From Octopus vulgaris (lineage: Eukaryota), in assembly GCA_951406725.2 (NCBI GenBank), contig OX597822.1, forward strand, positions 8,370,001 through 8,434,000: a stretch of DNA of 64,000 nucleotides. The letters are read 5' to 3'. Every line of letters starts with the position of its first letter. Position 1 is the stretch's first letter. Position numbers and translations under genes: made by a program. Shown piece after piece: positions 19,571-61,300 of the stretch. Below the pieces are notes generated by a model, which worked only from the letters and a program-made list of their open reading frames with translations, was not told the origin of the DNA and ran no database searches.

Positions 19571-19966
19571 ATAGAAATATTAAAATTACTAAGTCTCTCT
19601 AAAAGAGAACACGGCAGCGTTCCTGGAAATTAATAGTTATCGCCATACTAATATGGCATTCTTATAAAAATAAGAATAAAGCTGTCCGCTTATTAGCTCC
19701 ATGAGGCCATCGCCTTAAGTTAGCTATTTGATACACAAACTGTATCCATATAACCTTTGAACAAGGGAGGTCAGTCGCTCCACACTACTTGATCGACAGC
19801 TACAGACGCGTTTCGGGGTATTGCCCCTTGTCAATGTAGCGTAGGTTATATGGATACAGTTTGTGTATCAAATAGCTAACTTAAGGTGATGGCCTCATGG
19901 AGCTAATAAGCGGACAGCTTTATTCTTATTTTTATAAGAATGCCATATTTGTATGCCGATAACTAT
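19571..19966 (-). mobile_element. PLE-type fold-back mini-element between (TA)n tracts (124-bp inverted arms, HHR in the loop)
   Basis: Arms 19633-19756 and 19843-19966 are near-perfect reverse complements. A unique extension lies at 19571-19632. (TA)n on both sides. Confidence 0.75.
19799..19840 (-). ncRNA. Minimal type-I hammerhead ribozyme, U3-A8 core variant
   Basis: Minus strand GCUACA-UUGACAA-GGGG caaua CCCC-GAAA-CGCG-UC-UGUAGC: perfect 6-bp stem I, 4-bp stem II, palindromic stem III (ACGCGU), GUC cleavage triplet. Confidence 0.8.
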
Positions 19967-20130
19967 ATATATATATATATATATATATATATATATATAT
20001 ATATATATATATTGTTATATTTCGGAATGGTCATATTGCCAGTTTAGCCAATAAAAACACACGCACTATATATTTGGTGTTATTTTGCTTCAGTGATATT
20101 TATTTTTTACATTAATCTTAATCTTATTTC

Positions 20131-20175
20131 GGCCAAAATTCTTTCGTCACACTCCTGTGACCGCATCAGTGGTCC
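20131..20175 (-). ncRNA. Atypical minimal hammerhead-like motif in the pLTR (sense copy)
   Basis: GGACCA-CUGAUGC-G-GUCACA ggag UGUGAC-GAAA-GAAU-UU-UGGCC. A9 is replaced by C, there is an extra G before stem II, and stem I has a bulge. Confidence 0.6.
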
Positions 20176-20651
20176 TTTGTTTTCTTCTCACTTACTTGTG
20201 TCTCTCCTTACTAACCGTCAGCCATTTTGTATTTCTATTGTATGTCTTCATTTGCGCATGCTTATATCTCTATGTGCGTCTATGTTTATTTAGTGTGTGT
20301 GTGGGGGGATGCCTGTAATATTTGTATCTTCTGGTTATATACATTCTTGTAATTTGTATTTTGTTTTTGTTGTTGTTGCTTTTGTTCTAATTTTGTTCAT
20401 GTGTTTACATCCACCCATTATTATCATTACATATCCTTGTATGTATGTATAACAACAATATTAGTAATAATAATAATAAATCTAATCGAAAAAAAAAAAA
20501 AAGAATATACATATACATATATATATATACATACATATACATATACATATACATATATATACATATATACACATATATATACACATATAGATATTCATTT
20601 CTATTTCTTTAATTACCTGTGTATTTATTATGTTTGCAGGATCCACTATTG

Positions 20652-20848
20652 TCATATGTTGTGGTGTGCGCTATTGCTCCATTCTAGTTTTCTATTCAGG
20701 CTAGGTTTATTTTCTATTATATGTGTAGCTTCTGTAATTTGTCTAATTGTTGCATCTGTTCTATGTGTGGACAATATCTTAATCTCTATGTTATTGATTG
20801 ATCCCCCGTGTTCTTGTTCGGCGTGTTGGTACAGAATCGATGAGCTTT
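20652..20848 (-). pseudogene. C-terminal end of a PLE GIY-YIG endonuclease
   Basis: SSILYQHAEQEHGG...IKILSTHRTDATIRQITEATHIIENKPSLNRKLEW: the H...H, R...EA..I and LN motifs of PLE endonucleases. Confidence 0.8.
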
Positions 20849-21009
20849 TAACCAGAAGATACAAATATTACAGGCATCCCCCACACACACACTAAATAAA
20901 CATAGACGCACATAGAGATATAAGCATGCGCAAATGAAGACATACAATAGAAATACAAAATGGCTGACGGTTAGTAAGGAGAGACACAAGTAAGTGAGAA
21001 GAAAACAAA

Positions 21010-21054
21010 GGACCACTGATGCGGTCACAGGAGTGTGACGAAAGAACTTTGGCC
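21010..21054 (+). ncRNA. Atypical minimal hammerhead-like motif in the inverted pLTR copy
   Basis: GGACCA-CUGAUGC-G-GUCACA ggag UGUGAC-GAAA-GAAC-UU-UGGCC. Here 15.2-16.2 is G-C, versus G-U in the 20131 copy. Confidence 0.6.
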
Positions 21055-57973: not shown

Positions 57974-58225
57974 TACTCCTATGCAAAATCGTATCAAAAT
58001 ATAAATGAATCTTTGAACTTTTGGTTATTAGTTGGGAAAATACATCGTTTCAGATATATATCCTCCTAACTAAAAGGGTAATAAAAATCTGAAATGGCTT
58101 GATATGCCATATTTACAGCTTACTATTTATTTAATGCAGATTCATTGGCAATAGTGAGTTTGAAAATCAGTTGTAGGAAGTTAGCGGCAACCAGTTTAGG
58201 ATGTATCTTATTTGTTAGACCAATA

Positions 58226-58592
58226 TCTTTATATATAAAAGTGAGGTTGTGTGCTGTCTGTCTCCTACGATTTAGATTCCTAACTACTCCCACATTTTGC
58301 GGTGCAGTTTAACCAAAACCGGGTATCTTATAGTCGTGTTTCATATCGAGCCCTGGGTATTCTGGGTATTAGCGCGCGTCTACGATGAGTCTACGATTTA
58401 AAAAAAAAATTAGCATCATTTTTTTTCCATTTTTAATGCATTGTTTTGCTATTATATAAGGGAAGTAACTCTCTAAAAATGTCTACGATGAGTCTACGAT
58501 TTTAAAAAAAATTACCATCATTTTTTTAAATTTTTAATGCTTATATAGTTATTTCCCTTACAAACCCGAGCAACGCCGGGCGATACTGCTAG
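58226..58592 (+). mobile_element. Non-autonomous Helitron with an internal ~55-bp duplication
   Basis: A|TCTTTATATATAAAAG...CCCGAGCAACGCCGGGCGATACTGCTAG|T. GTCTACGATGAGTCTACGATTT occurs twice internally. Confidence 0.8.
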
Positions 58593-59676
58593 TTTATTAA
58601 TAACGCAATAAATTCTTTCTATTCTGTAAGTTAAATAATGTTAGAGTTATTTGTTCATAAGAGCATGTTATCTCATGCATGAGATGGGTTTTCATGTGAG
58701 AAATTGTGCTATTTACTCATGCAGATCAGGGGCCATAACGTCTGCAAATTCAAAGGAAGTCTAGAACTCAAGTTCTACGATCAAATATTTGGATAGAGAA
58801 TGTATTTGTCCAGAAGGATCAGTTATAATATACGATGGATATACTGAATACGATGTAATTTATATTTTCTTATCTAATATAGAATAGGTTTACGATATCA
58901 AGGTCTATCAGGTTCAATGTTAGCAGATTATCATAACCTTTGACATCAAATTGTAAGAATATGGGATTAGATTTACAGTGGTAAATTGGGAGCCAGTTAA
59001 TTTCAGCTAGTGCATTTGTTCTAAATGTACATGATGCTCATTCTGATAAAATCAAATTTTATATTTGCACATAATATGGGATTACATTCTAATGTAACAG
59101 CTAACATTTTATTCGGGATATTTGAATCTGTAATATGGACGATTCGAATAAATCGATAAATTATATTATAAATATTGAGGCTAGAAGAGTCCTAAAACAT
59201 TAACGTCATTCAGTGATTGCAACTGTGATTTCAGTCAGTACGTCCAAATTTAGTTGGAATATAAGATTTAGTAATGATTTTGTCCAATCAATAAAATTAA
59301 GTTTATGAGTGTGCTCAAATATTACGCCTTGAATTCTTAATGTCACTCGTTTTTTACTGGAGACTTTGTTGAGAACATTTCTGCATTATGCTTAAAATAA
59401 TAAGACATATAAGCTTTTCAAATACGCTCAATAGTCTTTTCACGAGGACGAATATTGCATTTGAATACACGTATATATGTATTTGTATGTATGTATGTAC
59501 ATATATATATATATATATATATATATATATATATATATATATAGGCGCTGATTTACCTGTTCCGGGTTCAATCGAATTGCGTTGCACCTTGGACGAGTGT
59601 CTTCTAATATAGCTTCGGACCCACCGAAGCTTTGTGAGTGGATGTGGTCGATGGAAACAGAAAAGAAGCCCTTGTA

Positions 59677-60912
59677 TTAGGTAGTTTCCCATAAAATGTA
59701 TTTGAAAGGTAGCAATAAAATATTTCAGAAGTGTTAGAGAACTGATTTATTTAATCAAAGTGTGGTCCATGTTCATTTATGACGTTTACCCAATTTTTGA
59801 CTATGTCATATATTCCATCTTTAAAAAAATTCATCTTTTGCTGTGATAAACTGTCCGAATGCTTCAATTACCACTTCTCTATTTAAGAATGTTTTATTGG
59901 GTACCAAAAGCTCAAAATGCTTAAATAAGTGGTGAGCAGTAGGAGAGATATCAGAGGAATAGGTAGGAAGTGGCAAAAGTTCATAATTCAGACATTGCAA
60001 TGTTTATACTGTAGCTTGAGGAGTGTGAGGATGTGCATTGCGGAGTAATATTGGGCTATCTCCATTCATTAGTCTGAGTCGCTTGTCTTTAAAATTCTCA
60101 TGCATGCAATCAATTTCATGCCAATACGATGTTGCTGTTACCAACATTTCCTTGTTGCAAAAATCAATAATAAATAACTCCCTTCGTCGGGCACCATACA
60201 GTGACCTCTAACTTTTTCGAGTGCAATGGTGAGTTTGGGTAGTGCTTGCGTGACTCTCCTGTATCTAATCGTTGTCCTCTTCACCTGCTGTTGTTGTTGT
60301 CAAAGAGTATCCATTTCTCATAATAAGTAATGATTTGATGCAAAATTGCCTTTTTCCAACCGAGAAAGCAATAAGGAGCACACTTCGAGGGGACTGTTTT
60401 TGAATCTCGTTCAGTTGATGTGGAATAAACCAATCCGTTTTCTTGACTTTTTCAATTTCGGACTGGTGATCAAAATCAGTTGTGGGAGAGTTCGGACGTC
60501 TGTTGAAAGATTTCGAACCTTTGTTCTCGGATTTTATTCAACCAAAGCATTTAATCCATCATGCCTAATAACGGATTTTGGCCTACCCCTTGGTTTATTT
60601 TCAAAGCTGTCATTTGAATGAGAGCTTTGGAACCACTTCTGAACAGTTTTGATGTCAACAAAGCCATTACCAAAGTACCATTTGATGTTTCGTAGAGCAT
60701 CTGCGGCAGAGTAATCTAGTTTGTACTCATACGAGAAAATCAATCAACATAGTTTGTTTGTTATCATTTCAATAAGTTTTGTAAGTACAAATTTTGTATA
60801 CCAATATTGTCAGTATACAGTCAAGATTAAATGCAAGGTATACATAATTGAAGTTTTAAATGATTGAAATAACAAGTAATTAAAATGCGACATTTCATGT
60901 GAAGTAACCTCA
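59677..60912 (-). mobile_element. Near-full-length decayed mariner (~1.24 kb), TA TSD
   Basis: Degenerate TIRs TTAGGTAGTTTCCCATAAAATGT / ACATTTCATGTGAAGTAACCTCA. Translated YEYKLDYSAADALRNI...TVQKWF...PRGRP, IITYYEKWILFDN, LLPLPTYSSDISPTAHHLFKH. Confidence 0.88.
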
Positions 60913-60939
60913 TATATATATATATATATATATATATAT

Positions 60940-61300
60940 ACAATTGCAGCGTGGGAGGTGTTTATAAGCCATTTAAGAAACACACAAAAGCCGTTCGATT
61001 CACTCCAACATTTAAGTTTAATTTGTCAAAATATTTTCGTCGCTAAAATCCGCGACCTGTTCACTGGCAAAGTCCGTGCTGCATCAAAGTCCGAGATGCA
61101 GCACGGACTTTGTCAGTGAACAGGTCGCGGATTTAGTGACGAAAATATTTTGACAAATTAAACTTAAATGTTGGAGTGAATCGAACGGCTTTTGTGTGTT
61201 TCTTAAATGGCTTATAAACACCTCCCACGCTGCAATTGTTTTCGTTTCAGCACACGATCTCAGATCAAATTACTTGCTATGCGAGTACATCTCCGTAATA
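60940..61300 (+). mobile_element. PLE-type fold-back mini-element between (TA)n tracts (~145-bp arms, 9-nt loop, HHR in each arm)
   Basis: 60940-61085 and 61095-61239 are near-perfect reverse complements. A unique extension lies at 61240-61300. Confidence 0.75.
61109..61157 (+). ncRNA. Minimal hammerhead motif, G3-C8 core variant (mirror copy on the minus strand at 61022-61071)
   Basis: UUUGUCA-GUGAACA-G-GUCGC ggauuua GUGAC-GAAA-AUAU-UU-UGACAAA: 7-bp stem I, 5-bp stem II, palindromic stem III AAUAUU. Confidence 0.7.

Follow-up and report, generated by a model that had tools for sequence, protein, structure and literature searches.

How do nine hammerhead ribozyme motifs of differing sequence come to lie within 64 kb of the Octopus vulgaris genome, and do the elements that carry them still need them? 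The stretch in question (contig OX597822.1 of assembly GCA_951406725.2, positions 8,370,001 to 8,434,000; hereafter the window, with positions counted from its first letter) is a microsatellite-rich piece of a 2.8-Gb assembly and has a GC content of 35%. The original prediction had placed nine hammerhead sites here, and all of them were found at those places. They belong to seven repeat families, with some 20 to several thousand copies each, which we label by window position: A (19799), B (20131 and 21010), C (28246), D (30932), E (49300), F (55071) and G (61022 and 61109). We consider it highly probable that these modules represent truncated 3' ends of several families of Penelope-like elements (PLEs), together with a single non-coding tandem element which those PLE enzymes likely mobilise, that reverse transcription likely inserted them into TA repeats, and that cleavage of their RNA by the hammerhead folds is predicted, also for those with U3-A8 and G3-C8 core pairs, with dimers or protein assistance most likely being needed.

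The motifs have a type-I layout. Core boxes (N3 UGA N7 N8 A9; GAAA; UH) with stems I to III, stem I being open, are passed strictly in the window by A and G: a strict descriptor returned two matches, A and one copy of G, versus 0.37 per shuffle. For C, D, E and F the layout was seen at the family level. A and this G copy are intact, and the window copies of C, D, E and F are defective; in family alignments, relatives of C, E and F restore what their window copies have lost. Hammerhead B deviates from the type-I core at A9, and its stem I is weak. Minimum free energy folding of single motifs mostly gave no three-way junction, as is expected with tiny stems III. These stems had been described as usually tiny palindromes, which applies to A, G and F and not to B and E; an extra purine past position 9 is indeed present in four motifs (B, C, E and G). 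Taken together, type-I hammerhead folds of the PLE type are supported for many parallel families, which lie mostly in (TA)n.

Within 40 nt of the 3' end, a (TA)5 run was found at 28 of 30 loci for G, 22 of 30 for F, 18 of 30 for C and 15 of 30 for D, against a background of about 4%, and at 0 of 19 for E, each locus set including the window copy. The proposed placement of the modules next to TA repeats is therefore upheld by the enrichment in G, F, C and D and by the window modules A, B, C, F and G, which adjoin such tracts, while the window copies of D and E do not lie beside (TA)n. Moreover, A, B and G have two alternative 3' ends, 57-62 nt apart (unit positions ~301-308 and 362 in A, 150 and 208 in G, 299 and 356 in B), as well as inverted arms. 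Truncated copies with inverted arms are the published layout of PLEs (PMC8557442). The two 3' ends match the PLE tail, which PMC11167929 ascribes to two internal starts of the reverse transcriptase (RT) after cutting of AT-rich DNA; the published tail measures 30-40 nt. One (TA)n tract, at 19964-20012, is common to modules A and B, and elsewhere too different PLE families often flank a single TA tract, e.g. at locus L015.

Longer copies join the modules to coding sequence. An open reading frame (ORF) with an RT followed by a C-terminal GIY-YIG endonuclease was seen for B, G and D, and the endonuclease end only for C and F; the hammerhead of the pseudo-long terminal repeat (pLTR) lies in sense to the ORF in B, C, D and G, and indirectly so in F. 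Because longer copies continue into RT/GIY-YIG sequence, we assign these five families, judging from sequence, to 5'-truncated ends of coding PLEs.

We propose that a tandem or read-through transcript would carry the pLTR hammerhead, and that a PLE protein would nick (TA)n and prime cDNA synthesis internally, at either of two sites separated by about 60 nt, leaving the two 3' ends that we observed (a mechanism taken from PMC11167929). Early termination and strand switching may then give the short, 5'-truncated and inverted copies whose structure is seen here. In two lineages the 3-8 pair would have undergone a compensatory double substitution, which gave U-A in A and G-C in G, as few events suggest, and family A RNA may be processed into monomers of 362 nt that are then closed into circles, as happens with known non-LTR retrozymes. 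The tiny palindromic stems III point to an action as dimers (PMC4209133).

Are the unusual cores family states or mere decay? Counted by eye, U3 and A8 stood in 100 of the 100 matches listed (of 120) for A, in which position 7 was the only polymorphic core site (46 C versus 54 A). G3-C8 was found in 99 of 100 matches listed (of 935) for G and in 97 of 100 matches listed (of 325) for a G-sister subfamily, 13 of these rows coming from one tandem array. G3·G8 as a subfamily state was rejected, with 1 case among 100 matches listed. C3-G8 is carried by 26/29, 26/29 and 28/29 relatives of C, D and F, respectively, and by B, whose core had been given as CUGAUGA and actually reads CUGAUGC, with C3-G8 and A9C in 27 of 30 copies. 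In E, 12 of 18 relatives have U3·G8 and hence no Watson-Crick 3-8 pair. The view that the variants are family states rather than decay is thus confirmed by the U3-A8 and G3-C8 pairs held across family copies. A survey of the fetched loci (1.35 Mb), made with positions 3, 8 and 9 of the descriptor free, gave a Watson-Crick 3-8 pair in 17 of 20 motif clusters compared with 2 of 10 shuffle hits; the 17 comprised 12 C-G, 3 U-A, 1 G-C and 1 A-U, the last likely by chance. Single motifs with a U3-A8 core and unrelated to A occur at two loci (L099 and L221) and may be further swaps or chance.

A pattern for the B/G lineage had 11,115 matches in the genome and none when reversed. Among the first 100 matches listed, counted by eye, 50 were G3-C8, 45 C3-G8 and 5 unpaired, i.e. 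95 were Watson-Crick. As C3-G8 and G3-C8 have similar shares of these matches, we regard G3-C8 as a compensatory change between homologues. Such double changes suggest that in master copies the catalytic fold, for which cleavage is predicted, has been selected. The reversed G3-C8 core would likely still permit some cutting. Indeed, a C3G/G8C double mutant partly restores cleavage in a lizard PLE hammerhead (PMC11167929), and the same engineered mutant is reported as a partial rescue of cleavage in PMC8495972 and PMC3884650. The G lineage has the same swapped pair, but as a natural state that is fixed in some 5,500 copies, an estimate which takes half of the 11,115 matches on the basis of the first 100 listed.

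Several observations weigh against the origin and activity that we propose. The G3-C8 swap is a single event, and covariation of positions 3 and 8, which the original prediction had put forward and which the family states U-A (A), G-C (G) and C-G (B, C, D, F) bear out, rests on few evolutionary events. Unpaired or weakened cores have been amplified too (U3·G8 in 12/18 E relatives, A9C in 27/30 B copies), and among 30 loci of A sisters C3·A8 (3), U3·G8 (2) and U3·U8 (2) have also spread. Young families are ~99% identical throughout, so that the constancy of their cores reflects descent and not selection. In old families the core, which had been expected to be better conserved than its flanks, is so by a slight margin, with 27 differences in 898 positions (3.0%) versus 671 in 14,909 elsewhere (4.5%; p 0.015), as measured on BLAST-selected copies. 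Lizard PLE hammerhead mutants insert normally in vitro and no RNA ends are found at the cleavage site (PMC11167929), and 8 of 9 Xenopus retrozyme dimers tested did not cleave (bioRxiv 2026.07.22.740005). As to origin, the coding link of F is indirect, and neither A nor E has an RT/GIY-YIG coding form among the loci searched, which leaves E without a coding partner among its relatives and A without an identified mobilising partner among those loci.

Could the hammerheads then be passengers, i.e. folds that are inherited although catalysis is no longer needed for spread, with variant cores that drifted in master copies? The amplification of A9C in B, U3·G8 in E and C3·A8 in A sisters fits such a scenario, as do the dispensability of cleavage for insertion in vitro (PMC11167929) and the Naiad PLEs, which thrive without canonical hammerheads (PMC8557442). 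A neutral path would, however, rarely yield a double compensatory change that is retained across several loop-2 subfamilies; in A, furthermore, the sole polymorphic core site is the free position 7, and the stems of the A lineage covary. Passenger status is compatible with our account of how the copies arose, and we rate it as rather unlikely, though still a serious contender to folds kept for catalysis.

Is the G3-C8 pair new to nature? Our search of the literature turned up only engineered mutants or unrelated papers, within a partial coverage that makes an earlier report possible, and the available part of PMC6155905 mentions no natural G3-C8. That G represents the first natural high-copy G3-C8 hammerhead lineage, kept by selection in thousands of PLE ends and found beside a whole U3-A8 retrozyme lineage, is a possibility that we advance tentatively, at somewhat less than even chances.

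Family A differs from the others in kind. Module A (19571-19963, minus strand), flanked by two (TA)n tracts, is a single insertion of a non-coding tandem element whose unit is 362 nt long, and consists of a 274-nt 5'-truncated sense piece, running from 19844 to 19571, and an inverted 124-nt piece (19840-19963). Its hammerhead (19799-19840, minus strand) is intact, with the core UUGACAA (U3-A8), a GUC site, a 6-bp stem I, a 4-bp stem II with a CAAUA loop and a palindromic stem III. The unit has a GC content of 40% and a longest frame of 54 aa, in keeping with its earlier description as non-coding, and its predicted circular fold has -117 kcal/mol, 7.7 standard deviations more stable than 100 shuffles (z -7.7). 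Of 30 A loci that overlap in part, 26 have a head-to-tail junction and 24 an inverted arm.

Sister elements show the same architecture. A loop-2 pattern led to 292 A-sister motifs in units of 357-360 nt; 5 of 30 sister loci align with the A unit at 69-79%. The sisters retain a stem I of 6 bp, the UAC/UGC bulge and the CA(A)AUA loop, which we take to be the canonical tertiary-contact pattern, and the cores at the 30 loci were 23 U3-A8, 3 C3·A8, 2 U3·U8 and 2 U3·G8. In the stems, 92% of cells are paired and 12 of 20 pairs have changed on both sides, compared with at most 4 in slid controls; the set comprises 28 distinct rows, and kinship of the sequences inflates a shuffle control. Helix covariation is demonstrated for the A lineage only.

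Given the non-coding tandem unit, the covarying stems, the PLE tail signature and the lack of a coding partner among the loci searched, A is best read as a non-LTR retrozyme that would be moved by PLE enzymes, with expression as circles predicted. Only A among the seven families has the features of a non-LTR retrozyme, namely a non-coding tandem unit of 150-450 nt, each unit holding a single type-I hammerhead. As a partner of A, the RT frame next to it at L005/L022 was ruled out, since this frame begins past a TA tract at A's 3' end and represents one site. Contigs of four sequencing runs that cover 28 of 28 bins of the A unit were not used as evidence, since contigs reveal neither transcription nor RNA ends or circles; the RNA nature of three of these runs is a guess, and the fourth is of unspecified kind.

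Might A instead belong to a coding PLE yet to be found, as its pLTR or as a satellite of it that was amplified locally, without any circular RNA stage? A shares its tail signature, inverted arms and TA targeting with coding PLEs, and the 2026 preprint (bioRxiv 10.64898/2026.07.22.740005) reports retrozymes that are homologous to pLTRs. Against this, no PLE frame is contiguous with A upstream in 66 partly overlapping loci, shared upstream sequence extends over at most about two units, and the copies are dispersed as 1-4-mers on many contigs. The stem and loop geometry, moreover, is that of the canonical type with tertiary loops. We therefore consider this alternative improbable and keep the retrozyme reading for A.

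Comparison with known systems supports this placement. Like the non-LTR retrozymes of animals (PMC7229834; bioRxiv 10.64898/2026.07.22.740005), the A lineage has a tandem unit of 357-362 nt, a GC content of 40%, a self-paired circular fold, a 6-bp stem I and a 4-bp stem II; mussel retrozymes measure 350-390 nt. It differs from those described there by U3-A8 across the whole lineage, by mostly 1-4 units with inverted arms, and by a PLE tail in (TA)n. Natural U3-A8 is reported in PMC3088659 and, as a variant with ~1,300 hits in Schistosoma, in PMC4209133; in the A lineage it sits in a tandem element of canonical geometry, not in a minimal pLTR motif as in the latter.

Do the remaining modules spread on their own? 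The original prediction had taken most of them for independent, non-coding ribozyme mini-elements that propagate as retrozymes. Most copies are indeed short and lack coding sequence, the top-scoring copies of C begin near one common 5' point, A is non-coding and tandem, and E has no coding link. However, longer copies of five of the seven families (B, C, D, F and G) run on into coding sequence, which leaves A as the one family that fits a retrozyme.

Already in the window, module B (20009-21233, both strands), which had been read as non-coding, is a 5'-truncated coding PLE between (TA)n tracts. Its minus-strand arm runs from ~20848 to 20009 and its inverted pLTR arm covers 20849-21233, with a tail of ~57 nt. 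The last 65 codons of the GIY-YIG endonuclease (20849-20655, minus strand) are 100% identical to residues 540-604 of a 604-aa RT and endonuclease frame at locus L207, on which the Pfam models RVT_1 and GIY-YIG give weak matches, both under the cut-off; a tblastn search with the B ORF gave matches in 9 of 30 B loci. Hammerhead B is present as a minus-strand copy (20131-20175; C3-G8, A9C, an extra G, a 6-bp stem II) and as a plus-strand copy in the inverted arm (21010-21054).

Module G (60940-61297) is likewise the 3' end of a coding PLE and lies between (TA)n tracts, with an inverted arm at 60940-61085 (minus strand) and a direct arm at 61090-61297 (plus strand) that carries a ~57-nt tail. The direct hammerhead (61109-61157, plus strand) is intact and has the core GUGAACA (G3-C8), an extra G, a 7-bp stem I, a 5-bp stem II and a palindromic stem III; the inverted copy (61022-61071, minus strand) has one mismatch in stem I. 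Two G loci (L151 and L153) have 1,496 nt upstream in common that end in a GIY-YIG frame, and in longer copies, ~1 kb upstream, the frame reaches the RT (L205, L206 and L307).

The five motifs that had been called unrelated in sequence are not all so, as the ORFs of B and G are 51-53% identical and B, E and G have the same stem II pattern and extra G. On these grounds we group B, E and G in one lineage. Module E (49255-49385, minus strand; motif 49340-49300) is an old, degenerate member of this B/G type, whose motif has A6C and a broken stem I where relatives restore A6 and stem I. A tandem array of G-sister motifs on contig C2 with a 2.18-kb repeat was considered as a retrozyme and rejected, being a tandem host-gene array with an insertion. 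At this locus (L296, ~206.16-206.19 Mb) each 2.18-kb unit contains an inverted pair of G-sister motifs and part of a D-like tail, together with a 352-aa frame that we presume to be polysaccharide-deacetylase-like.

For C, D and F the coding links vary in directness. Module C (28145-28357, minus strand) is an old 5'-truncated PLE 3' end that abuts (TA)n on its 3' side; its hammerhead (28280-28246, minus strand) has the core CUGAAGA, an extra A and a stem III altered at a CpG, where 19 of 29 relatives have the palindrome ACGU. When C was searched from its 5' edge, upstream sequence was common over more than 1.4 kb, with sense GIY-YIG matches in 2 of 30 loci and no head-to-tail units in 30 loci. 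An inverted pair of ~120 nt, seen by eye at 27800-28110, abuts the (TA)n tract of module C; it has a PLE-like layout and no hammerhead was seen in it. The D pLTR (30864-31093, plus strand) contains a hammerhead at 30932-30994 with the core CUGAUGA and, in the window copy, changes at the base of stem II. As proposed, it lies ahead of a PLE ORF start (31100-31520, plus strand), which has an RWK motif and is broken by stops and frameshifts; among copies of this ORF start, 10 of 19 loci have the D pLTR upstream and 13 of 19 have RT downstream. Module F (54948-55185, minus strand) is likewise a 5'-truncated PLE 3' end, and (TA)n adjoins it on the 3' side. Its hammerhead (55156-55071, minus strand; core CUGAGGA, stem II region ~57 nt) has lost 11 nt just past the cleavage site, where 22 of 29 relatives read CTGCAT. 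Copies of F have ~1 kb upstream in common, and two loci contain an inverted arm that starts in a GIY-YIG end and passes into sequence with 75-81% similarity to this upstream region.

By the motifs of PMC8557442, and as a motif-based rather than tree-based assignment, D (RWK, DKT and a CxCX5C linker) and F (the CxCX5C linker only) appear to be of the Hydra type, and the CX3-4CxxC linker of B and G would be of the Neptune/Nematis type. Overall, independent spread of the modules is refuted for B, D and G and largely so for C and F, and we regard it as very unlikely for the set, in favour of truncated ends of coding PLEs.

That the motifs are chance matches in AT-rich DNA, as ~2 matches of relaxed descriptors per shuffled window and the silence of Rfam might suggest, is hardly credible and is refuted by family alignments in which relatives mend the defects of window copies, by exact family patterns with 120 to 11,115 genome matches versus 0 for reversed controls, and by a strict scan with positions 3, 8 and 9 free that found 8 motifs in a 600-kb genome sample (60 evenly spaced 10-kb stretches) versus 0 in 5 shuffles. 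All 8 carried G8 and A9, although the descriptor left both free; a looser descriptor gave 9 motifs versus 1-3 in shuffles. First-look searches returned 800 candidate relatives for A, 4,747 for C, 1,697 for D, 3,302 for F, 2,219 for G and 20 for E, and a pattern search 3,688 exact 22-mer matches for B.

Standard descriptors were expected to miss these motifs, and Rfam indeed reports none of them: no hammerhead family was among the matches listed for the window (150 of 196), and no hammerhead model matched 19700-19940. Among 73 candidates scored, RF00163 matched 6 C3-G8 motifs elsewhere in the genome, including a canonical C3-G8 hammerhead at L418 (contig C5, 6546758-6546804) with 45.5 bits. Further hammerhead families, with stem II inserts of 20-75 nt and longer palindromic stems III, are present at loci L190, L248, L244, L138, L057 and L419.

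Is the window exceptional? The density claimed for it is not supported by the strict scan, with 2 motifs in 64 kb against 0.85 expected from the 8 in 600 kb (P 0.21). A BLAST count gives 9 in the window versus 23 in 600 kb (P 0.001), with a library that is biased to the window's own families. The genome is motif-rich and the window is at most about threefold above its mean; extrapolation gives ~37,000 intact and more than 100,000 recognisable motifs, next to published counts above 6,000 for a coral, of ~9,000 for Xenopus and of 126,247 for the axolotl.

Much of this system is known. The minimal hammerheads of PLE pLTRs in PMC4209133 share with ours the type-I fold, the short palindromic stem III, an extra nucleotide that separates position 9 from 10.1, a longer stem II and many families per genome, mostly as solo or inverted pairs; G3-C8, U3·G8 and A9C are not mentioned as family states in the available part of that paper. 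Hydra-clade PLEs (PMC8557442) resemble D and F in (TA)n insertion, tandem/inverted structure and a hammerhead near the 3' end, and the supplement lists an octopus Hydra family with a hammerhead. Its hammerhead sequences differ from those of D and F, the latter having a stem II region of ~57 nt, and those in the available part of File S2 are all C3-G8, unlike the G3-C8 and U3-A8 families described here. A search of this supplement with four short sequences taken from B, D, F and G gave one match, by chance. The novelty once suggested for density, core diversity and retrozyme-like spread was over-rated, U3-A8, the extra nucleotide, palindromic stems III, solo motifs by the thousand in many families, TA targeting and retrozymes having all been published. 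What is left as new is limited to two lineages whose activity is predicted, one with a natural G3-C8 pair at high copy number and a retrozyme-like one with U3-A8.

Other features of the window include what remains of the GIY-YIG domain of a further PLE, with its cysteine linker (2762-3250, minus strand; Pfam GIY-YIG E 8.6e-4, below the cut-off), beside which no compact hammerhead was found by the descriptors used, and LINE-type RT frames of 504 and 176 aa split by a TA-rich tract (40209-42254, minus strand). A 5S rRNA copy (57433-57548, plus strand) scores 80.6 bits, above the Rfam cut-off, and is possibly a pseudogene with several unpaired positions in its terminal stem; a weak tRNA-like match (29057-29129) has 25 bits, below the cut-off. 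An interstitial (TTAGGG)10-like array lies at 1172-1229, and SINE-like repeats form an inverted pair at 6645-6875 and 7515-7745. Two frames at 17504-18264 (plus strand) are presumably Tc1/mariner transposase-like fragments.

In summary, the overall system was known, and the gain is modest. Fixed CUGANGA descriptors and Rfam overlook thousands of motifs, among them an apparent retrozyme lineage. The hammerhead of PLEs is conserved, yet it was dispensable for insertion in the one in vitro system. The natural G3-C8 swap argues for past selection on the catalytic fold, while the spreading mismatched cores argue that this selection is loose. Families with different cores within one genome form a testable series of the need for the hammerhead. 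If our reading is true, the U3·G8, C3·A8 and A9C families, together with G3-C8, would provide a natural series of cores in which activity compared with copy number could show how far PLEs need their ribozyme.

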